Source of the DNA: a virus
Reading direction: 5' to 3' (one strand)
Virus genome (UHGV): UHGV-0079174
Length of the DNA: 12,456 nucleotides
Under the pieces are notes generated by a model that made no database searches, had not been told where the DNA came from, and saw only the letters and a program-made list of their open reading frames with translations. The position numbers were made by a program, and so were the translations under genes. This document shows, piece after piece, positions 2,635 to 12,332 of the stretch (position 1 is the first letter of the stretch; the number at the start of each line of letters is the position of its first letter).

Positions 2635-3303
2635 GTGTCACATCCAATAATCAATGTTGGTCGTTATCATGGTGGTTCTGATGACTGGCGTACACCGTAT
2701 CGTTTATTTCATAATCTGCATCGTGAGTTTAACTTCAGTCTAGATGGCGCTGCAACTGAGCATGACGCATTGTTGCCACGGTTCACCGATGATATTCACA
2801 ATCAATCATGGGTTGGTGAACGGGTCTTCGTTAACCCGCCGTTTAGCATGGCTGAAAAGTTCCTCTTAAAAGCCCCTGAAGCTGATGTGTGTGTATGTCT
2901 GGTTCCGCTCAGGTCAAAGACAACTTACTGGCTTCGGTGTGTATATACAAACCCCTTCCTGCATGAGATTCGAACGTTGCACCGAGCAGTCAAATACCTT
3001 CCACCAGCAGGAAAGAGAGGTGTTGTAGTGCGCTCACCGTTTCCAAGTTGCGTTTTGATATACAGGAACACACCCCGCAAACCGAAAGTTGAAGTTACCC
3101 AGACAATCTATTGTGGTGACACAATGCTTTTACTTGCCGTGGTTAACAGGGGTGGTTTACGTGGAAGACCTCATATGCACAATGCACAGACGCTTGACAG
3201 GTTGATTAAAATGTATGACCAAGGGCAACCCATCAAGAGCATCGCAGAATCGCTAAGAATGCCTCTAAGCACCACTTACAGGATTGTTCAAAGGTTGGGC
3301 TGA
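2635..3303 (+). CDS. Phage Dam-family DNA N6-adenine methyltransferase with C-terminal helix-turn-helix extension
   Basis: 222-aa ORF, GTG start 9 nt after AAGAGGGG. N-terminal DDWRTP, then VFVNPPFS (N/DPPY/F-type catalytic motif) and LVPLRSKTTYW...SPFPS, the pattern of phage Dam-type orphan methyltransferases. The last ~40 aa (GQPIKSIAESLRMPLSTTYRIVQRLG) read as a resolvase/Hin-type HTH. Family assignment is from motif memory, not a search. Confidence 0.7.
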   Translation: MSHPIINVGRYHGGSDDWRTPYRLFHNLHREFNFSLDGAATEHDALLPRFTDDIHNQSWVGERVFVNPPFSMAEKFLLKAPEADVCVCLVPLRSKTTYWLRCVYTNPFLHEIRTLHRAVKYLPPAGKRGVVVRSPFPSCVLIYRNTPRKPKVEVTQTIYCGDTMLLLAVVNRGGLRGRPHMHNAQTLDRLIKMYDQGQPIKSIAESLRMPLSTTYRIVQRLG

Positions 3304-3768: not shown

Positions 3769-4026
3769 TTAACGGGGTTCTGTGTGGTCGTTATCCTTAA
3801 GGTCAAGCGTCCATGTACGACCGAACAGTTTAAAGACAACAAGCACTCTGACGAGGACGTAGCGAAGTAGCAGACCTGCAATCAGCCCAACACCTCCACC
3901 AGCCCATACATCAGGTGACCCCAGCTCAGGAGGGAGATTTACCATTAGTTTTCCTTGTAAGACGCTCTCAATCGCATTCTGACACAAAAAAGTACCTGAC
4001 CTTATATGTTGACCTGAAGAGGCCAT
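3769..4026 (-). CDS. Hypothetical small protein with one hydrophobic segment; coding status uncertain
   Basis: 85-aa minus-strand ORF with hydrophobic stretch GGGVGLIAGLLLRYVLVRVLVVF. A candidate minus-strand promoter lies upstream (4126-4155). Weak ribosome-binding site. Confidence 0.3.
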   Translation of the reverse strand: MASSGQHIRSGTFLCQNAIESVLQGKLMVNLPPELGSPDVWAGGGVGLIAGLLLRYVLVRVLVVFKLFGRTWTLDLKDNDHTEPR

Positions 4027-4240: not shown

Positions 4241-4795
4241 ATGAGAGACGCAGAATTTAGAGCGATGCTTCAGGCATCGAGACAACGTAACAGATACAAC
4301 TCCTACAGCTACACAGACACCCCCACCAGCTACGAATTACCCAAGCTCACCCAAAAAGAACGCAAAGGCATTGACGAAGTAATTCGGGCAATTACACCGA
4401 GGGAACGTTATATGCCAACCAGAAAGAGCACGAAGAACAGCATCAAAAATTATTTGAATAACTTCGACAGCTATGAGCAACTACCAAGTAAGCTTGATGA
4501 TATTTTCATTGGATTCTGTAGAAGTGAAGGCCACCCGAAATACAACAAAAAACTATTTTATCTTCTAAAGAATCTTGACGAAATTAACGCATCCAGCGTG
4601 ACAAATCGTCTTCAGCGTCAAGCAACCAGACTTAGCTACGAATTACCAACCGATGCCTATTGTGCATTGCTTGCTGTAATGTGTGCAAAGCTAATTGGTA
4701 TTGTTGAACATCATATTGCCGTTGGTAATATTGAGCCAATGGAAAACGAGCAACCAGACTTTGAGTTTGACCCGTATATTTTGGAGGAATTTTAA
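4241..4795 (+). CDS. Hypothetical protein with acidic C-terminal tail
   Basis: 184-aa ORF, ATG at 4241 preceded by TAAGGA. C-terminal EPMENEQPDFEFDPYILEEF. No recognisable domain. Confidence 0.55.
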   Translation: MRDAEFRAMLQASRQRNRYNSYSYTDTPTSYELPKLTQKERKGIDEVIRAITPRERYMPTRKSTKNSIKNYLNNFDSYEQLPSKLDDIFIGFCRSEGHPKYNKKLFYLLKNLDEINASSVTNRLQRQATRLSYELPTDAYCALLAVMCAKLIGIVEHHIAVGNIEPMENEQPDFEFDPYILEEF

Positions 4796-4796
4796 A

Positions 4797-5078
4797 ATGG
4801 GAAATAAACACACATTAACCAGAGTTACAAAGACAGCCTTTGAAGAGCTTAACCGAATCAAAAACATTACAGGTCTGCCACACTCAGCAGTGATGAAGCT
4901 TGCAATTAACCGTGATATTAACGAACAAGATTTGCTTAATAGTCGCTTAGAGGCAGCAAGACACCATATCAGGATTAAGCAAGATGACCTTGATAGTCTG
5001 AAATATTTAAATGCTTTTGGACTGGATTTAGCAAGGTTACTAAGCATCAAAATTCACAAATTAGCGATGGAGGTTTAA
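4797..5078 (+). CDS. Small protein, possibly a ribbon-helix-helix DNA-binding protein
   Basis: ATG at 4797 sits 9 nt after GGAGG (4783-4787) and 1 nt after the upstream stop; the track's 4695 start would overlap the upstream gene by 100 nt. N-terminus KHTLTRVTKTAFEELNRIKNITGLPHSAVMKLAI resembles a strand-helix-helix pattern. Fold call is tentative. Confidence 0.5.
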   Translation: MGNKHTLTRVTKTAFEELNRIKNITGLPHSAVMKLAINRDINEQDLLNSRLEAARHHIRIKQDDLDSLKYLNAFGLDLARLLSIKIHKLAMEV

Positions 5079-5464
5079 TGTATGACTTTTATAAACATCG
5101 TGACCATTTGGTAAGATTTGACGGTAAAGTCTGGAAAGACGTAACACAAACCAATAAACCCAAGTTTACCCACCAGCAATTAGCCTCAAGATTTGATATC
5201 TGGACTGAAGCACAAAAAGATAATGGTGATTTCGAGTTTATCAGAGGTTTTGATTATTCTTACGAAGACGACCTTAAAGACGCCATTAAATTAATTGAGA
5301 ACTTCAACTCTATTAAAAATGGTGACAAGCACAAAGCCAACGGTAACAGATACGATAAAGATTTAATCATTGATGCAATCACCAAAGGACAATCACAAAG
5401 TTATATTTCTGAGAAATACGGCTTATCACGTAGTCAATACTACAAGATTAAAGCGTCTGTGTAA
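5078..5464 (+). CDS. Hypothetical protein with C-terminal helix-turn-helix
   Basis: 128-aa ORF. Its ATG overlaps the upstream stop (TAATG at 5076-5080), indicating translational coupling. C-terminal DAITKGQSQSYISEKYGLSRSQYYKIK is the same resolvase-type HTH flavour as the methyltransferase C-terminus. Confidence 0.6.
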   Translation: MYDFYKHRDHLVRFDGKVWKDVTQTNKPKFTHQQLASRFDIWTEAQKDNGDFEFIRGFDYSYEDDLKDAIKLIENFNSIKNGDKHKANGNRYDKDLIIDAITKGQSQSYISEKYGLSRSQYYKIKASV

Positions 5465-5476
5465 GTCTGTGAGAAT

Positions 5477-5523
5477 GAGTGAGACTCAAAGATGAGCTAC
5501 CCTATTACTAAGGTGTCTCACTC
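5477..5523. promoter_or_regulatory. 9-bp perfect inverted repeat GAGTGAGAC / GTCTCACTC separated by 29 bp
   Basis: Arms at 5477-5485 and 5515-5523, between two genes. No T-tract follows, so it is more likely a binding site or RNA structure than a simple terminator. Confidence 0.3.
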
Positions 5524-5602
5524 CCTCTGTAACCCGCATGGTTACTGGCCTCAGGATGGCTATTTTGGCAGATTTAAGATGTGTTTTTAGAGGATTTTAA
5601 AA

Positions 5603-5926
5603 ATGAATAATTTCCCGCTACAGATTTTCGTTGATAGCGACACCGCTCTGATGATTCAGGCTTTCAGTGATTCCGGTGTATCAATTGACTTTGATAAATT
5701 ACTAAAGCTAATGGCTGATAACTCAGAAACAATTGAAGATTTTATTCAGGAAATTGAAACTGGTGACCCACGTTTTATGTTTCCCGTTACCGACTCAAAC
5801 ATGAAGCGCCTTATTATTGAGGAAACTAACCGATACAGCGTTAGCCCTGAAAAATATCTCAAGGCGGCTATAGTAATTTTGTACGCTGACAATGTTTTGG
5901 TTACGGATTCGAAGGTGGTGCATTAA
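5603..5926 (+). CDS. Hypothetical acidic protein
   Basis: 107-aa ORF, ATG at 5603 preceded by AGAGGA (5589-5594). Confidence 0.55.
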   Translation: MNNFPLQIFVDSDTALMIQAFSDSGVSIDFDKLLKLMADNSETIEDFIQEIETGDPRFMFPVTDSNMKRLIIEETNRYSVSPEKYLKAAIVILYADNVLVTDSKVVH

Positions 5927-6015: not shown

Positions 6016-6044
6016 TTGACAAATAACCTTGAGCATGACATAAT
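6016..6044 (+). promoter_or_regulatory. Sigma70-type promoter (second of two matching promoters)
   Basis: -35 TTGACA (6016-6021), 17-bp spacer, -10 CATAAT (6039-6044), followed by TGTATATATAGG (6045-6056). Confidence 0.55.
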
Positions 6045-6146
6045 TGTATATATAGGGAGAGCAATTCTCCTTGAATTAAAATATTAATCATTCTACATCG
6101 ATGATAACTATATTCTGAGTTGGAAAGGTGCAATGCTTTTCGCTAC

Positions 6147-6175
6147 ATGACCTCTTATATAACTTGAGAGGTCAT
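6147..6175 (+). promoter_or_regulatory. Hairpin in the long leader (9-bp stem ATGACCTCT / AGAGGTCAT, 11-nt loop)
   Basis: Perfect 9-bp inverted repeat about 100 nt downstream of the predicted start site. No T-tract follows. Confidence 0.35.
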
Positions 6176-6234
6176 CTCGAAAAGTCTTTGTTCATTCATT
6201 GAATCCTTTAGATGTTCTTTAATTTCTTCACCTT

Positions 6235-6270
6235 AGCCCTTTATAGCGTTTTAGTTATCTAGGGCTTTTT
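6235..6270 (+). terminator. Terminator-like hairpin inside the leader (possible attenuator)
   Basis: Stem AGCCCT (6235-6240) / AGGGCT (6261-6266), 20-nt loop, then TTTT (6267-6270). Lies about 190-220 nt downstream of the promoter and about 110 nt before the first gene. The long loop weakens the call. Confidence 0.3.
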
Positions 6271-6378
6271 CAGCTTTTAAAAAGCATACATGGCAAACGC
6301 TTTTAAGTCTCTTCTAAGTTCGTAGGCTGTCAGGTGTGCTTTTTAAAAACTGAATATTACTTAGAAGAGGAAAATGAA

Positions 6379-7086
6379 ATGGAAAATCTATATATTAGCG
6401 GTAGAAAGGTTGATAGCTTCGGTGACTGGTCGCCACAGACTGAACATCCAGCTATCACTATTCAGCGTAAAGAACACGATGAAAGAATTAAGCTTGAGCA
6501 ATCGTTAAAGATGTCACCAAAGGTAATTTCCTTTGTGTCTCCTGAGCCTCAAGAAATGCCAGATATCTGCAAAAGTGAAGCACTATTTAATCTTGAGCGT
6601 GAATATTACCCACAGTTAAAAGCACAGCGTATTAAACTTGATGACGCTTACAGCAAAGTTACCCTGATGCAATCAGCTATTGAGCCGTCAGAATTTGAGA
6701 TTCAGGATGAATTGTCACAGAAACCATTTGTCTATTACAAATATGAAGACAATGATGGTTTTGGTACTTTTCCTGAGAATATCCCAGACGTGATTAATAA
6801 TCTTTCTGACGGATATCGAATTGTGAAGATGGTTAAGGCATCAAGAGGTGCTGGTCAGTTTATTTACATGACTAATAAGAGCGATGAAGAACTCGCTGAA
6901 CTTGCTAGACAGAACATCTTGGCATCACGTAACAAGCAGCTTGATAGTGCTAAGTTGTATCTCTCAAGAGAGCTTCAGGCTATGAAAGAGCTTGTTAGTG
7001 AATATGAGTCGCAGAAGAAGGTTGCTATGCAGGCTGATATTGAGCAGCTTACGAAGATTTCTAGCAAATATGCAAAAGCTATTTGA
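6379..7086 (+). CDS. Hypothetical protein with C-terminal coiled-coil-like region
   Basis: In-frame ATG at 6379 preceded by GAGGAAAA (6367-6374); the track's GTG at 6334 has no ribosome-binding site. 235 aa from 6379. No recognisable domain. Confidence 0.55.
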   Translation: MENLYISGRKVDSFGDWSPQTEHPAITIQRKEHDERIKLEQSLKMSPKVISFVSPEPQEMPDICKSEALFNLEREYYPQLKAQRIKLDDAYSKVTLMQSAIEPSEFEIQDELSQKPFVYYKYEDNDGFGTFPENIPDVINNLSDGYRIVKMVKASRGAGQFIYMTNKSDEELAELARQNILASRNKQLDSAKLYLSRELQAMKELVSEYESQKKVAMQADIEQLTKISSKYAKAI

Positions 7087-7094
7087 GGTGATTA

Positions 7095-7403
7095 ATGAGT
7101 GATTTAACAGAACGCGATAAAAGAATTAAAGGGGTGATGGAACCTTTTGAAGATAGGTTCAATGAAATTAAAACGACTCTTGGTGATATTCAGGAGGTCA
7201 CTGAATATCTTATTGGTCGTATGGACGAAAAGCCTCTTGCCGAACTAAAGTTTGAGGGTCGAGATGATTTAACCTTCCTTATTAGAGACCTCAAGCGAGA
7301 TGTAGGACGGCTTGAATCTATCTTTGATAAAGCTGGTCTCTCAATACGTTACGAAATTGTAAAGAATGAACGCGGTGTAAAGTGCATTCACTTCTTGGAG
7401 TGA
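7095..7403 (+). CDS. Hypothetical small acidic protein
   Basis: 102-aa ORF. Extended Shine-Dalgarno GAGGTGAT (7085-7092) before ATG 7095. N-terminus MSDLTER. Confidence 0.55.
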   Translation: MSDLTERDKRIKGVMEPFEDRFNEIKTTLGDIQEVTEYLIGRMDEKPLAELKFEGRDDLTFLIRDLKRDVGRLESIFDKAGLSIRYEIVKNERGVKCIHFLE

Positions 7404-7425
7404 AAATTGAATTATGAGGTGATGA

Positions 7426-7632
7426 ATGATTGATTTAACAGAACGCTATGAACTCATCAGGGCAATTAGCGAACGATTGAAAGAACAACCCAACAAACCA
7501 AAACGAATCAAATCATCCACCTCTAAGCAAAATAACAGAATCAGAAGAATCGCTAAATGGTGTCTTGATAAATTACCAAGTGATTGTCAGATTGTCGGTG
7601 AAGATGGCAATTATTATCTTGTCAGACATTAA
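7426..7632 (+). CDS. Hypothetical small basic protein
   Basis: 68-aa ORF. GAGGTGAT (7416-7423) before ATG 7426. N-terminus MIDLTER. Its first ~37 bp are near-identical to the start region of the gene at 7095. Confidence 0.5.
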   Translation: MIDLTERYELIRAISERLKEQPNKPKRIKSSTSKQNNRIRRIAKWCLDKLPSDCQIVGEDGNYYLVRH

Positions 7633-7658: not shown

Positions 7659-7699
7659 GGGAGAGATTATCGAGTGACATCGGTAGCTCTCCCTTTTTT
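7659..7699 (+). terminator. Candidate intrinsic terminator
   Basis: Stem GGGAGAG (7659-7665) / CTCTCCC (7687-7693) followed by TTTTTT (7694-7699). The 21-nt loop is long for a canonical terminator. Confidence 0.4.
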
Positions 7700-7814
7700 G
7701 TATATGTGCTACGTGATGATTCGGATAAGAATTATCCTCATGAAATCTGTAAAGCTAATACCCACACTGAAAAATAGAATTTACGTACAACACGCTTAAA
7801 GAGGTGAAACATGA

Positions 7815-9863
7815 ATGAGCAAATTCACAGTTGATAGTTTTATCGTTGAACTAGGCTTCAATGAGAACGTTATTAAAGGTCTGCAAAAAGTTGAAAAGGC
7901 AGCTTTGCAGTCAGCACAAAGAATTGAACGTAATTTGAATAGAGCGTTTAAGGTCGATACCAAGCAACTTGACAGTAATTTAACGGCTTCTTTAAAGTCA
8001 ATGGAAGGGAAGATTAATAAGACCTTTGACCGTCTGGAAGCTAGAGCAAAAAATACTAAAGCTTTCCGTTTCACAAGTCAGGTTAATGACGCTATTAATC
8101 CTCCAAAACAACCAAGACAGCCACGAATTAGCGGAAACAGAGCAATCACAGCAGCTTATTCAGCTAATATGAGCAAGCTGAAAGGTCTTAACCCAATTGT
8201 CGAGAAATACATTAAGAGTCAGTTTTACGCATTAAGTAGTAAAGCTGGTCAGATGGATAACACCAAGTTTAATGAAGCCCTCGCTAAACTAAATTCAAGT
8301 GTACGAGAAGCAATTGCTAAAGCCAGAGGTCATACATCCACCAGCATTAACGGTGACAGAGCAGCTAGCAGTCTTGATAGTCTGTCTTCAGCAGCAGTTA
8401 AAACAGCAGGTGCATTTATCAGCTTTCAGGCTGTACTATCCGCTTATCAGCGAGTAATGGAAGTTGGCCTTCAACGTGCATCATCGGAAAGAAGTATTGA
8501 TTTCGTATTCGGTGACCAAAGTACACAGGTTAAAAAGTTCATTCAAGATTTAACTCAAATTACTGGTATGGACACAACCGAAACACAAGCACAATTTGCT
8601 TCATTTGGTGCATCTGCAACGACTACGATGGGTCTTGAAGGGTCAGAAGAGTTATTTAAAAACCTTACAGGTTATGCTCGTTTAATGGGTCGTTCAGATG
8701 AGCAGATTCAAAGAGCATTAACCGCAGTGTCACAGATGGCCTCTAAGGGTCAGGTGATGGCTGAGGAGTTGAAGGGGCAATTATCTGAAGCTTTGCCGGG
8801 TGCTACTCAGGCATTTGCAAAGGCTTTAGGTCTGACTGAAAAACAACTTTTCGATAAGATGAAAAATGGTGATGTTAAAGCCTCTGATGCACTTCCTAAG
8901 TTTGCTAAAGAACTTGGTGCACAGATTAATTCAAGAGGTGGCTGGAAAGCTATTCAGGACTCTACGCAGACAATGTTAGGGAACTTAAAGAATACCTGGA
9001 ATAACTCACTAACGGATATTTTCAGAGGTTCTGAAAATGGTCTGCAAGATTTTACACGAAGCCTAACAACGCTTTTAAACAGTTTAGGTGGAAGTGGTAA
9101 AAGTCTTGGTGAATCTCTTGGTAGCTTGATGACTGATATGTCGCATGGTGTGGATAGCCTGACCGATATCAGTTACAGAGTGAGAGCTTTCTTTGATGAG
9201 GTGACATTGGCTTACCGTGGTTTAACCGATGAGCAAAAGAAAGTAGTTGATGCTTTAGGTTCTGGCTTGATTAATAGTTTAAAAGTCTTGGCTGGTGTTA
9301 TTGCTGTAAATAAAGTTGTTGGTGTAACCAGAAGTATTTACGGGCTTATGACTGCTATCACAAGATTAGGTCAGGTCGCTGATACAACAGCGGATAACGT
9401 GAATAGAAAGAACGGGAAACCATCAAGGTTTAATCTTGGGAATATGCTATTAGCTGGTAGTGCTATCTATGCAGGTTATGAGAGATTAGCTTCTACGCCT
9501 GAACGAATGGAAGCACAAGCTAAATTACCAGAGCTGGCTAAAGAGTCTGGACTTAAGCCAGTATTTACTATGGACGATGTGAAAGGTTGGTTTAATAGTG
9601 CTGCTATGAATCTTGCTAACTTCCAGCATCCAGAATTAATCACCATGAGACAAGATGCGGCATTAACGAATACGGATATCCAAAGCCTGAGAGATGAAAT
9701 TAGTGCTTTGAGCAAACGTATTCAGGAGCCTGTGAAAGTTTCACTTGGTGGTGAAGTTGCCATTAAACCAGATGAAACCAGCTTTATGACCTTTAGCAGT
9801 AATATCTACGACCAATACGCAGAAGCTACGCTATTAAGTTCATCATTCCCAGAAGATGATTGA
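7815..9863 (+). CDS. Tape-measure-like protein (phage tail length tape-measure domain)
   Basis: 682-aa ORF, AAGAGGTGA before ATG 7815. Central segment KGQVMAEELKGQLSEALPGATQAFAKALGLTEKQLFDKMKNGDVKASDALPKFAKELGAQ matches the conserved tape-measure domain pattern from memory. A/S/G/L-rich helical composition with internal hydrophobic segments. Confidence 0.6.
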   Translation: MSKFTVDSFIVELGFNENVIKGLQKVEKAALQSAQRIERNLNRAFKVDTKQLDSNLTASLKSMEGKINKTFDRLEARAKNTKAFRFTSQVNDAINPPKQPRQPRISGNRAITAAYSANMSKLKGLNPIVEKYIKSQFYALSSKAGQMDNTKFNEALAKLNSSVREAIAKARGHTSTSINGDRAASSLDSLSSAAVKTAGAFISFQAVLSAYQRVMEVGLQRASSERSIDFVFGDQSTQVKKFIQDLTQITGMDTTETQAQFASFGASATTTMGLEGSEELFKNLTGYARLMGRSDEQIQRALTAVSQMASKGQVMAEELKGQLSEALPGATQAFAKALGLTEKQLFDKMKNGDVKASDALPKFAKELGAQINSRGGWKAIQDSTQTMLGNLKNTWNNSLTDIFRGSENGLQDFTRSLTTLLNSLGGSGKSLGESLGSLMTDMSHGVDSLTDISYRVRAFFDEVTLAYRGLTDEQKKVVDALGSGLINSLKVLAGVIAVNKVVGVTRSIYGLMTAITRLGQVADTTADNVNRKNGKPSRFNLGNMLLAGSAIYAGYERLASTPERMEAQAKLPELAKESGLKPVFTMDDVKGWFNSAAMNLANFQHPELITMRQDAALTNTDIQSLRDEISALSKRIQEPVKVSLGGEVAIKPDETSFMTFSSNIYDQYAEATLLSSSFPEDD

Positions 9864-9930: not shown

Positions 9931-10020
9931 TCACGCTTAACAGATAAAACACTTAAATATCAAAGGCTTGGTTAAAAATGATTAAAATACACTAAGTCTT
10001 TGAAATCAAAGGAGAATATA

Positions 10021-10794
10021 ATGATTTACACTAATCAACTTCGTTACAGTGGCAAAGATGGTATCTATTTCCACTTAAGAGATAATGTAGATGCCTTCTT
10101 AACCTTATCAGCAACTGAAAACATGGAATTTGACAGCCCTATGCAGGTGACTACACAGAACATGCAATCAGGGCAAACCGTAACAGATAACGTGCAAAGA
10201 GCACCCAGAACAATCACTATTAGTGGTGTCGTTGTAGTTGGCTATGAAGGAAGCTTATTATTAACTCGTCAGGGTCAATTAGTAGAAAATTTCATCGACA
10301 CTCTTGAAAGCTGGCGTGACCAGAAGCAGATTATTTCTGTCATCTGTCGAGACGGTATCAAAATTGATGATTCCATTATTACGAGTTTTAAAGCCTCTAA
10401 AGATGTTGGAATTTCAAATGGTCTAAGAATCCAGCTAACTTTTCAGGAAATTAACTTCAAAGCCATTGTGGGTCAGACTGATATCTCTGCTGCAACTGGA
10501 AAGACCGCTACCACAAATGATGGTGGTGCTACTTCTAAGAAAAATACGGGTAACACTACGACAAGTCTAGGTAATGGTATGTTGATGTGTCAGGAGCTAT
10601 ATAATCGCTCTACGAGTGAACTCACTAATGAGCAACTTCAAGCCCGTATCAATTGTGGTAGAAGTGTCAAAGTTGAGAACGGAAAAAGCACCTTCTCAGA
10701 TGCCGCTAATGAGCAAGCTTCGAAAGTGCTTAGTAATGCTGGTACAGGTAGTACTTTGAAGAAATTTTCTGTAAATCCTAACAAGCGATACTGA
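10021..10794 (+). CDS. Hypothetical protein, possibly tail-associated by position
   Basis: ATG at 10021 sits 6 nt after AAGGAG (10009-10014); the track's TTG at 10000 is less likely. 257 aa from 10021. C-terminal third is T/G/N/S-rich low complexity. Function is inferred only from lying immediately after the tape-measure-like gene. Confidence 0.5.
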
Positions 10795-10808: not shown

Positions 10809-12332
10809 CTATATGATAACCTCATCAACATCTATTAAACCCCTCTCAGTGACTTCAGAAAGCGACTGTATAGCCTCTGTAACGTCCTCTGAGGGGTTTT
10901 CTGTTATTGATAGGTCAATTACCTTACCGTTGTGAAAACTTACTTTACAGCGACGTTTAGCAGTATTTAAAACGACCTCTTTAACAGCACTTTTGATTAT
11001 CAGTTGTGCTTCAATCCTTCCCGCCTTTGTAGTCAAGTCACAATCAGACAAACAACCAACATCAATAGATTTAAGGCGTTGTGTCTCCTTCTCGATATCC
11101 GCATCAACCTGTGATAGCTCACCTTTTAACTGCTTTAGTTTGATGGTAATAGCTGACAAATCTTCAATTTCAAGTGATAGCTGTACCAGCTTTTCAATAT
11201 TGCTTGAGATGTGTTCACGGTGTAGCTTCAGCGTATCTATGGTATTCGTCATATCGCTATCAAATCGGTCAAGACGAGATAGCAGGGTAAGTAATGTACC
11301 ATCAGTTTGCTTACGTGAAAGTCCTTTAGCACTACAACGGTTTTCATTACGAAGGGGACAACGATAAATCCCGCTTCTTGTATCGCTAAAGCCTGTGATA
11401 ATCAAAGCATGACCACATTCAGAACAACGGATAACACCTTTGAAAAGATTCACAGCCATTGGCTTATCTGAAGCAGGTTTTCTACCGTAACGAGAATATG
11501 ATAGTTGTTGAACTTTGTAGAATGTTGTTTCATCTATAATTGCAGGATAATAACCAGCTATCTCCTCACAGCCTTTAGGTGTGAAGTAACCAATTACAGA
11601 GCGATTTTTCAGAAGGTCTTGTACTGAGGTTTGACCAAATGAACCCGCTTTATATTGGTTAAGCGTCTGGTGACCTTCATCATTAAGAGTCCTGACAATC
11701 TCCCAGATAGACTTACCCTCTAACCGTAGCTGAAAGCACCTCTTCACAGTCTCCACTTTCTCAGGGATTACAGAGAAGCTTTTACGGTCATCATTAAGCT
11801 TAAGCCATGCAGGACAACGTTTAGAAATCTTGATACCTTCAGAGATGAGTTCTTTTTTACGGTTCCATGCAGCTTGTATACGCTCAGACTTCCTCAAACT
11901 CTCCTCATGCGACCGCTGCATTATCAGAATGCTTTTAATCAGAGCTAACGGGTCTTTAAGAGATTCTCGTGTGTAATGTTCACCATCGGACAAGGTGACC
12001 ACATCTACACCAGAGCGAAGAATGTTTCTGAGTAGCTCACTTGCTTGGTCTACATCTTGACGTGACAGACGGTCAAGAGATTCTATCAAGAGCGTATCAC
12101 CAGCTTTAACAAGCCCTTTCTCGATAGCGGTTAAAAAGTCACCTAAGCCACCTTTCAAGTGCTTACCAGTGAACCCACTCACCCCCAAATCACGGAAGGA
12201 TAAATCTTGGTCAAGGTAGTACTCAGGATGAGCCTTAAGCCAGTCATTAACCATCTTAGACTGTCTGCGTAGTGAGTCGCCTTTGGCTTGTCGCTCAGAA
12301 CTGAATCTGATGTAGCTGATTACACGTTTCAT
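10809..12332 (-). CDS. Large serine recombinase (probable integrase of the element)
   Basis: 507-aa ORF. N-terminal resolvase-type catalytic domain with YIRFSSERQ (nucleophile-serine motif, compare YIRVSTEEQ), a Cys-rich zinc-ribbon-like segment CSECGH...YRCPLRNENRC, and a C-terminal coiled-coil region. This is the domain order of phage-type large serine integrases. Confidence 0.85.
   Translation of the reverse strand: MKRVISYIRFSSERQAKGDSLRRQSKMVNDWLKAHPEYYLDQDLSFRDLGVSGFTGKHLKGGLGDFLTAIEKGLVKAGDTLLIESLDRLSRQDVDQASELLRNILRSGVDVVTLSDGEHYTRESLKDPLALIKSILIMQRSHEESLRKSERIQAAWNRKKELISEGIKISKRCPAWLKLNDDRKSFSVIPEKVETVKRCFQLRLEGKSIWEIVRTLNDEGHQTLNQYKAGSFGQTSVQDLLKNRSVIGYFTPKGCEEIAGYYPAIIDETTFYKVQQLSYSRYGRKPASDKPMAVNLFKGVIRCSECGHALIITGFSDTRSGIYRCPLRNENRCSAKGLSRKQTDGTLLTLLSRLDRFDSDMTNTIDTLKLHREHISSNIEKLVQLSLEIEDLSAITIKLKQLKGELSQVDADIEKETQRLKSIDVGCLSDCDLTTKAGRIEAQLIIKSAVKEVVLNTAKRRCKVSFHNGKVIDLSITENPSEDVTEAIQSLSEVTERGLIDVDEVII

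Follow-up and report, generated by a model that had tools for sequence, protein, structure and literature searches.

We analyzed three genes at positions 6379–7632 of the virus genome record UHGV-0079174, a stretch of 12,456 nucleotides (nt) of which the full length is termed the window below. The three genes encode proteins of 235, 102 and 68 amino acids (aa) and precede a gene for a tape measure protein (TMP), and their products match no known tail-protein family. The window is not a phage. Judging from the comparisons described below, it looks like a phage satellite, in which only the TMP and a tube initiator (TI) were captured from Felixounavirus-type phages, its putative helpers. With a probability of roughly 40%, we propose that the 235-aa and 68-aa proteins would manipulate tail assembly as factors directed at the helper, and that the 102-aa gene is an add-on cassette.

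Anatomy and conservation of the three genes

The 235-aa gene (6379–7086), the 102-aa gene (7095–7403) and the 68-aa gene (7426–7632) are all encoded on the plus strand, and a GAGG-type ribosome-binding site precedes each of them. The 235-aa gene starts at an ATG behind the site AGAGGA, and an alternative GTG start at 6334 would extend its product to 250 aa. The isoelectric points (pI) computed for the three proteins were 5.2, 5.2 and 9.7, respectively. An earlier note on this DNA had described genes of 235, 102 (acidic) and 68 aa (basic) upstream of a tape-measure-like gene, and both the open reading frames (ORFs) and the pI values agree with this description. The note had also found no slippery sequence linking the two small genes, which are separated by 22 nt and possess their own ribosome-binding sites. 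We found that stops at 7408, 7420 and 7423 close the frame of the 68-aa gene up to its ATG, and that the remaining frame is closed by stops at 7415 and 7427. Thus, a G/GT-type frameshift fusion of the two genes is impossible.

The 235 and 68 families are core genes, as they were found in every related island examined, and the 68 family was detected in all of the 63 metagenome loci. The 102 family is an optional, non-core cassette, with members in 4 of the 63 metagenome loci and in at most 126 of the 473 E. coli genomes that carry the three-gene region. At the level of sequence clusters, a set of 1.84 billion representatives contained 18 clusters of the 235 family at 50% identity; the 68 family comprised 204 clusters at 90% identity (only from Enterobacteriaceae, and none of them annotated), and the 102 family 30 clusters. 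The members of all three families are confined to Enterobacteriaceae, and a Pfam domain was found in none of them. The pairwise ratios of nonsynonymous to synonymous substitution rates (dN/dS) were 0.30 for the 235 family and 0.10–0.25 for the 68 family, and the TI gave 0.14. Ratios of 0.1–0.3 indicate purifying selection, and we thus regard the 235 and 68 families as functional genes. Despite these ratios, the variation is deep and mosaic, with identities ranging from 22 to 100% in the 235 family and from 40 to 100% in the 68 family.

The 68-aa protein consists of an N-terminal helix, a K/R-rich linker and a conserved C-terminal motif, W-C-x-D-x-x-P-x-D-x-Q-I-x-G-E, and its N-terminal and C-terminal types are combined in mosaic fashion. 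The 235-aa protein is acidic and rich in helices. In the AlphaFold2 (AF2) model predicted from its single sequence, with a predicted local distance difference test (pLDDT) score of 71, long helices at residues 24–44, 67–99 and 169–234 surround a small, poorly resolved beta unit. The model of the 102-aa protein (15-sequence alignment, pLDDT 67) comprises two helices and a C-terminal beta-hairpin, and its structural matches were generic only.

Searches against known protein families

None of the three proteins matched any family in Pfam, PHROGs, NCBIfam or PADLOC (2023), and when each sequence in the 68 and 102 alignments was scanned against Pfam, all matches were at chance level. Searches of the three proteins against sequence profiles of the PDB returned only noise. 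In tblastn searches against 50,697 phage genomes no match was obtained with any of the three (up to E = 1 in the case of the two small proteins), and BLASTP against the two chaperones of the helper gave nothing at E ≤ 100. Neither profile similarity to major tail tube proteins nor the beta-sandwich fold of a tube was found. The chaperone folds 2OB9 and 5IR0 were missing from the 60 top structural matches of both AF2 models, which are moderately confident (pLDDT 71 and 67). The earlier note had doubted that these are tail genes, a view that confident profile matches to tube or chaperone families would have contradicted; no such match was found in Pfam, PHROGs, NCBIfam, PADLOC, the PDB profiles, tblastn or BLASTP.

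The 235-aa protein bears the name "transposase" in RefSeq, a database label that has been propagated over hundreds of genomes. This name is unsupported, as no catalytic or DNA-binding domain of a transposase was detected in the protein with Pfam, NCBIfam or the PDB sequence profiles. Literature searches turned up no account of these islands or of the three protein families.

The window is an integrative island

The earlier note had judged the three genes by the position that tail-assembly genes normally hold in a phage, and this premise does not hold. The window corresponds to a complete island of ~12.3 kb inserted in yecE, where it splits the DUF72 (yecE) gene of E. coli FDAARGOS_1252 (100.0% identity). 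At one end of the island, a large serine recombinase with Resolvase, Recombinase and Zn_ribbon_recom domains is encoded on the minus strand (10809–12332) and is regarded as the island integrase. No gene for capsid, portal, terminase, sheath or tube was found in the island by inspection of the ORF list, Pfam and PHROGs.

Among 5,426 complete E. coli genomes, 473 (~9%) carry the three-gene region, with up to five copies per genome. Islands of like gene order occupy at least three insertion sites, namely yecE, the region between yciI and tonB, and that between mdtG and lpxL, and their hosts include E. coli, Shigella, Citrobacter, Salmonella, Pluralibacter and Kluyvera. A search with one genome per species (GTDB) added a single further locus. 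One relative, L005, is an 11,280-bp contig from a public sequencing run with a terminal overlap of 27 bp, and it maps exactly to an integrated copy (L003, 4432–15697) with its ends joined across a 13-bp overlap. The terminal overlap and the joined ends identify it as an excised circle of 11,253 bp. Terminal overlaps were seen in none of the 80 metagenome contigs, which thus add no evidence on circular forms. When viral contigs were searched with either the 235-aa protein or the recombinase, only close relatives were retrieved, on contigs of 8–53 kb; these contigs are presumably prophage-type predictions and are uninformative on packaging.

TMP and TI of Felixounavirus origin

Comparisons with Felixounavirus genomes indicate that the TMP and TI of the island derive from lytic Felixounavirus phages. 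The TMP gene (7815–9863, plus strand; Pfam TMP_3, PHROG 4036) encodes 682 aa. Its product is 29% identical end to end to the 747-aa TMP of the Felixounavirus JH2 and shorter by 65 aa. The N-terminal 40 aa are 75% identical to JH2 and the C-terminal motif LLSSS[FY]PE is retained; the shortening falls in residues 45–160. Across the relatives, the satellite TMP ranges from 677 to 729 aa, always below the 735–747 aa of the helper phages. It is also a mosaic, since the identities of the N-terminal, middle and C-terminal segments were uncorrelated across islands (rho −0.05 to 0.18).

The TI gene (10000–10794, plus strand) encodes a Dit-like baseplate hub protein (Pfam Dit_like). At the DNA level, it is 92–95% identical to more than 200 Felixounavirus genomes over 10045–10593, and other TI variants, such as that of L003, match Ounavirinae at ~70%. 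Its position following the TMP gene is the same as in Felixounaviruses, in which the product encoded there by Bas63 is gp18, the tube initiator (cryo-EM structure). The difference between the TI (92–95% at the DNA level) and the adjacent TMP (29% at the protein level) points to a recent exchange of the TI between satellite and helper.

A remnant of a Felixounavirus-type chaperone gene is left at 7777–7814 (plus strand), the 38 nt immediately upstream of the TMP start codon. Positions 7777–7949 align at 75% with positions 57953–57778 of JH2, which comprise the last ~13 codons of the chaperone gp089 and the start of the TMP gene. We thus consider that the captured fragment once held chaperone sequence and that the chaperone genes were lost later. 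The gene order in the helper is sheath, tube, terminator, 132-aa chaperone, 79-aa chaperone, TMP and TI, with the 79-aa chaperone in the −1 frame; the annotation of Mijalis contains a frameshifted fusion.

Operon signals

A near-consensus promoter of the sigma-70 type was found at 6016–6044 on the plus strand (TTGACA, a spacer of 17 nt, and TG-CATAAT), matching 11 of the 12 consensus positions in addition to the TG of an extended −10 element. It is kept in all of the 10 aligned relatives that reach this position, including the most divergent ones (L006 and L008). The promoter is followed by a structured 5′ leader of ~330 nt (6050–6378, plus strand), in which a hairpin GCCCT...AGGGC followed by TTTTT resembles a terminator and a long stem lies before the ribosome-binding site of the 235-aa gene. 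The minimum free energy of the leader is −94.3 kcal/mol against −67.6 ± 5.0 for shuffled sequences (z = −5.4). A gap of 390–540 nt is present at the leader position in all relatives, and no match to the leader was found in Rfam. These features suggest that the leader exerts attenuation or antitermination control over the tail operon or acts as a functional RNA. The promoter, as read from the sequence alone, fits host-type expression, but it is followed by the terminator-like hairpin of the leader.

A second terminator-like element, a 14-bp hairpin at 7659–7693 followed by T6, lies at 7659–7699 between the 68-aa gene and the TMP gene on the plus strand (−21.1 kcal/mol, z = −4.9). The hairpin and T-run are present in all of the 12 aligned related islands, with compensatory changes at five pairs. 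In five relatives (L003, L008, L013, L017 and L019), the ribosome-binding site of the TMP gene lies ~25 nt or less past the T-run; as no room is left for a promoter, the TMP gene must be transcribed through the hairpin in these islands. The window and some relatives carry an insert of ~95 nt here, which ends in the chaperone-gene stub. The tail operon of the helper also has a similar terminator, which follows the tube gene and precedes the genes for the chaperones and the TMP. The element at 7659–7699 is thus probably an attenuator inside an operon. In the simplest reading, there is a single operon, comprising the promoter, the leader, the 235-aa gene, the optional 102-aa gene, the 68-aa gene, the attenuator, TMP and TI. 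The earlier note had taken this element for a terminator separating the three genes from the tape-measure-like gene. The hairpin and T-run are real, but they do not divide two modules, since the TMP genes of five relatives are read through them and the helper operon is built alike. The suggestion that the three genes may be a novel module rather than tail genes is partly supported: they match no tube or chaperone family, but they probably belong to one operon with the TMP.

An antisense match was also noticed in the leader. Positions 6309–6323 (CTCTTCTAAGTTCGT) are the perfect complement of the helper mRNA sequence ACGAACTTAGAAGAG, which lies 14–28 nt upstream of the start codon of the helper TMP gene. 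The target ACGAACTTAGAAGAG is identical in all of the four Felixounavirus loci compared, and a Mooglevirus differs from it at one position. The 15-mer of the leader occupies the unpaired top of a long hairpin in the centroid fold, and at least 14 nt of it are retained in 18 of the 86 leaders. A 15-nt antisense match was equaled somewhere in the 12-kb helper tail region by 11 of 2,000 shuffled sequences, and 13-nt matches to this region in the sense orientation are common. An antisense action of the leader on the helper TMP mRNA is weakly indicated by this match, which we note as a lead; it gains some interest from the PLE small RNA SviR, whose targets are chaperone and hub transcripts of a helper.

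The 102-aa gene is an inserted cassette

The 102-aa gene is bracketed by two copies of a 32-bp direct repeat, both on the plus strand, which agree at 30 of 32 bases. The left copy (7084–7115) comprises the ribosome-binding site and the first seven codons of the 102-aa gene, and the right copy (7415–7446) includes the true start of the 68-aa gene. Islands that lack the cassette possess a single repeat copy at the junction of the 235-aa and 68-aa genes. The flanking repeats and the single copy in cassette-free islands identify the 102-aa gene as an inserted cassette, and the duplication of the repeat accounts for the N-terminus MSDLTER of the 102-aa protein.

The possibility that the three families are paralogs was examined with hhalign and rejected (probability <1%). 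The 102-aa and 68-aa proteins gave a pairwise E of 8e-4, plausibly due to the duplicated first seven codons. A 138-aa variant of the 102 family showed a weak hhalign match to residues 115–212 of the 235 family (E = 0.016, probability 3%), which we treat as unproven.

Variants of the 235-aa and 68-aa proteins do not track the TMP

We compared matrices of pairwise identities by Mantel correlation across 60 loci (13 loci for the recombinase). The 235 and 68 families were nearly uncorrelated with the TMP (rho 0.07, p 0.058 and rho 0.06, p 0.018, respectively) and with each other (rho 0.08, p 0.014), and covariation as a proxy of binding to the TMP is thus not supported for either family. The TMP and TI were correlated with a rho of 0.48 (p 0.001). 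The 68-aa gene ends less than 200 nt before the TMP gene, and the variants of the two are nearly unlinked. The type of recombinase was not tracked either, with a rho of 0.04 (68 family) and 0.16 (235 family). For example, L012 has a 96%-identical 68-aa protein, but its recombinase is only 34% identical and the island occupies another insertion site; the opposite was found for L017. Adjacency and conservation of the 235-aa and 68-aa genes without co-adaptation to a partner in the island suggest that the two proteins have an external partner, be it in the helper phage or in the host.

Proposed function and alternative explanations

The island appears to parasitize lytic myophages of the genus Felixounavirus (Ounavirinae). 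It would supply its own shorter TMP and its own TI, presumably for chimeric tails like those of the Vibrio PLE satellites. The helper-type chaperone genes were lost, and the unrelated, island-specific 235-aa and 68-aa proteins now occupy their position. We propose that these two proteins may act on the TMP, chaperone or tube of the helper, so that either the helper's own TMP pathway would be blocked or helper parts would be diverted to the TMP and TI of the satellite. In this proposal, the 102-aa gene would represent a similar, added cassette. Several points weigh against this proposal. The dependence on a helper is an inference from sequence comparisons, as are chimeric tails and the idea that the three proteins act on the helper. 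The 235 family is correlated, if modestly, with the TI (rho 0.27, p 0.001). Missing covariation is in itself weak evidence, since the N-terminal 40 aa, or another conserved stretch of the TMP, could be what a chaperone binds. At the moderate confidence of the AF2 models (pLDDT 71 and 67), a diverged chaperone fold could be missed, and PADLOC (2023) gave no match for the three proteins.

In a possible, if rather unlikely, alternative, one or both of the 235-aa and 68-aa proteins, with the 102-aa protein as a variant, constitute a non-orthologous tail-assembly chaperone, which would coat and stabilize the satellite TMP and recruit tube subunits of the helper in place of the lost G/GT chaperone. 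The genes sit immediately upstream of the TMP gene, as do the 132-aa and 79-aa chaperone genes of the helper JH2, and in PLE satellites, too, a chaperone is kept beside the TMP. The stub shows that the original chaperone was lost, and an attenuator before the TMP gene would yield an excess of chaperone over TMP. On the other hand, the proteins match no chaperone family and share no similarity with the helper chaperones, a frameshift product is impossible, the variants do not track the adjacent TMP (rho 0.06–0.07 across the 60 loci), and the 102-aa protein, the one that is acidic and of chaperone size, is missing from most islands. The independence of the 235 and 68 variants from those of the tail genes would also suit a role outside the tail, which we consider unlikely. 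The 235-aa protein could be a scaffold that redirects capsid size, resembling Sid of P4 (a helical protein of ~244 aa) or TcaP of PLE, and the basic 68-aa protein could bind nucleic acid at the leader or the hairpin and serve there as a regulator or antiterminator. An element of 11–12 kb that exploits an 87-kb phage needs a solution for packaging or capsid size, to which no other gene of the island has been assigned; furthermore, the K/R-rich 68-aa protein is encoded just upstream of the conserved hairpin, and a structured leader with a terminator-like element suits antitermination control. Nevertheless, no helix-turn-helix or other nucleic-acid-binding family was matched, the best being a single member with E = 0.14 to a winged-helix family, and the co-transcription with TMP and TI argues for a role related to the tail.

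Two further explanations can be largely set aside. Several directionality factors of serine integrases are small, basic proteins of ~60–70 aa, and the island contains no other candidate for the recombination directionality (excision) factor of its large serine recombinase than the 68-aa protein. However, the variants of the 68-aa protein do not track the type of recombinase (Mantel rho 0.04, 13 loci), as exemplified by L012 and, conversely, L017. This recombinase-independent variation led us to reject the 68-aa protein as the excision factor, a role that we regard as very improbable. Even less credible is that the island is a decaying prophage remnant with three non-functional ORFs. A tail set truncated to TMP and TI and the insertion sequence (IS) elements interrupting some copies would fit decay, but the architecture is conserved at no fewer than three insertion sites and in 9% of the E. 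coli genomes, the genes are under purifying selection and an excised circle exists. Moreover, the promoter, leader and hairpin are all conserved, and the source phages are strictly lytic, the JH2 genome being without an annotated integrase.

Our proposal of helper-directed factors can be extended to a broader one, which we consider improbable as a whole. In this extension, the islands would be widespread, undescribed Enterobacteriaceae satellites of virulent Felix-O1-type phages that swap the tail core; the 235-aa and 68-aa proteins would be a new class of factors disabling the TMP/chaperone pathway of the helper, the satellite TMP and TI would take over, and the leader may add an antisense layer like that of the PLE small RNA SviR.

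Comparison with known systems

The closest precedent, by analogy of gene content, is provided by the PLE satellites of Vibrio cholerae. As shown by the Seed laboratory, PLEs exploit the lytic myophage ICP1 and encode a chaperone, a TMP and the hub protein BhuB (Nature 2026, PMC12987554). PLE virions contain the TMP and hub of PLE in place of those of ICP1, and their tails are ~10 nm shorter, the TMP of PLE11 being 95 aa shorter than that of ICP1 (PMC12987554). Rta of PLE11, an 80-aa protein expressed before infection, blocks the TMP of ICP1 and leaves tailless heads, and the small RNA SviR binds the chaperone and hub transcripts of ICP1 (PMC12987554). The selective incorporation of the PLE TMP has yet to be explained, and putative TMP genes were mentioned only in Vibrio PLE-like elements and cf-PICIs (PMC12987554). 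Another constitutively expressed blocker that targets a TMP is Tab of the Pseudomonas phage JBD26 (PMC10884400).

As in PLE, the chromosomal island here is small, encodes a large serine recombinase and has a putative link to a strictly lytic myophage. Both encode a divergent, shorter TMP of their own (by 95 aa in PLE and 65 aa here) and an adjacent hub/TI protein, and in both the TMP is of low identity to that of the helper (20% in PLE and 29% here) and the hub protein is better conserved. In contrast, PLE keeps a chaperone of the HK97-type fold (5IR0 and 2OB9), whereas a 38-nt stub and two unrelated island proteins are found here; the hosts are Enterobacteriaceae and the putative helpers Ounavirinae rather than ICP1, and the island is smaller (11–12 kb, against ~18 kb for PLE). 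In general scans with Pfam, PHROGs and NCBIfam, in which no direct comparison with PLE was made, no family match of an island protein hinted at homology with a PLE gene such as that for RepA, TcaP, NixI or the chaperone.

The three proteins resemble Rta, Tab and Tai, small blockers of tail assembly encoded by mobile elements, in being unannotated proteins carried by satellites or prophages. Rta and Tab have host-type promoters, are expressed before infection and target the TMP of the invader, and PLE11 evades its own Rta through its own TMP. The conserved sigma-70-type promoter predicted here and the divergent satellite TMP would fit the same logic. With the G/GT chaperones (gpG/gpGT of lambda and the 132-aa/79-aa proteins of Felixounaviruses), the genes share a position immediately upstream of the TMP, a small size and a combination of one acidic and one basic product, but they differ in having no frame overlap or slippery site, no sequence similarity, an optional acidic 102-aa protein and no covariation with the TMP. 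The likeness to external scaffolds such as Sid of P4 and TcaP of PLE is of a general type only, that is, a satellite-encoded, helix-rich protein of a size near 235 aa; we found no structural or sequence match, and the gene is linked to tail rather than capsid genes.

To our knowledge, all well-studied satellites of E. coli (P4, PICIs and cf-PICIs) exploit temperate phages. If our proposal is true, a satellite family present in ~9% of complete genomes and targeting strictly lytic Felixounaviruses would be new for E. coli. Felixounaviruses are widely used in biocontrol and typing of Salmonella and E. coli, and such islands could affect the host range of phages in therapy as well as phage resistance. 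It would also show that the chimeric-tail strategy, so far known only for Vibrio PLEs, is general. The replacement of a canonical chaperone by two novel proteins makes the latter direct candidates for the mechanism of TMP incorporation that is open in PLEs. The novelty here consists in a satellite with a partial tail module whose host and putative helper family are both new and whose chaperone has been replaced by non-homologous proteins.

Other features of the island and its surroundings

To the right of the window in FDAARGOS_1252 (L001, 20405–28457), a lambdoid prophage with a tyrosine integrase and an excisionase adjoins the island in the same split DUF72/yecE gene, and the two are tandem elements. 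This arrangement probably explains the matches of at least 99% between the window and records of Stx-converting phages.

The left arm of the island is variable (188–1021 and 2635–3303). In the window, it encodes a 277-aa protein, which by eye has hydrophobic N-terminal segments and a charged, repetitive C-terminus, and a Dam methylase fused to a helix-turn-helix domain. In the relatives, the content of this arm is different: a small resolvase, an AP2-type protein or an HNH endonuclease is encoded there, or IS elements are present. The arm thus resembles an accessory or defense cargo region. A 58-aa gene annotated in relatives (3770–3946, minus strand) faces a conserved block of four plus-strand genes at 4241–5926, which encode proteins of 184, 93, 128 and 107 aa. 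None of these genes has a family assignment, and the 128-aa protein showed a weak match to a helix-turn-helix. The 58-aa gene and the four-gene block presumably serve the regulation and replication of the island.

Between the two parts of the left arm, 1.6 kb of noncoding sequence (1021–2634) is free of annotated genes, and its only ORFs are two short ones of 57 and 92 aa on the minus strand. Motifs of the CTTAACAG and CTGTTAAG types recur in this region. It shares many patches of 12–53 nt, at 82–100% identity and especially within 1600–2510, with the largely noncoding region 84,250–85,200 of JH2, and it may mimic a replication origin or packaging site of the helper.

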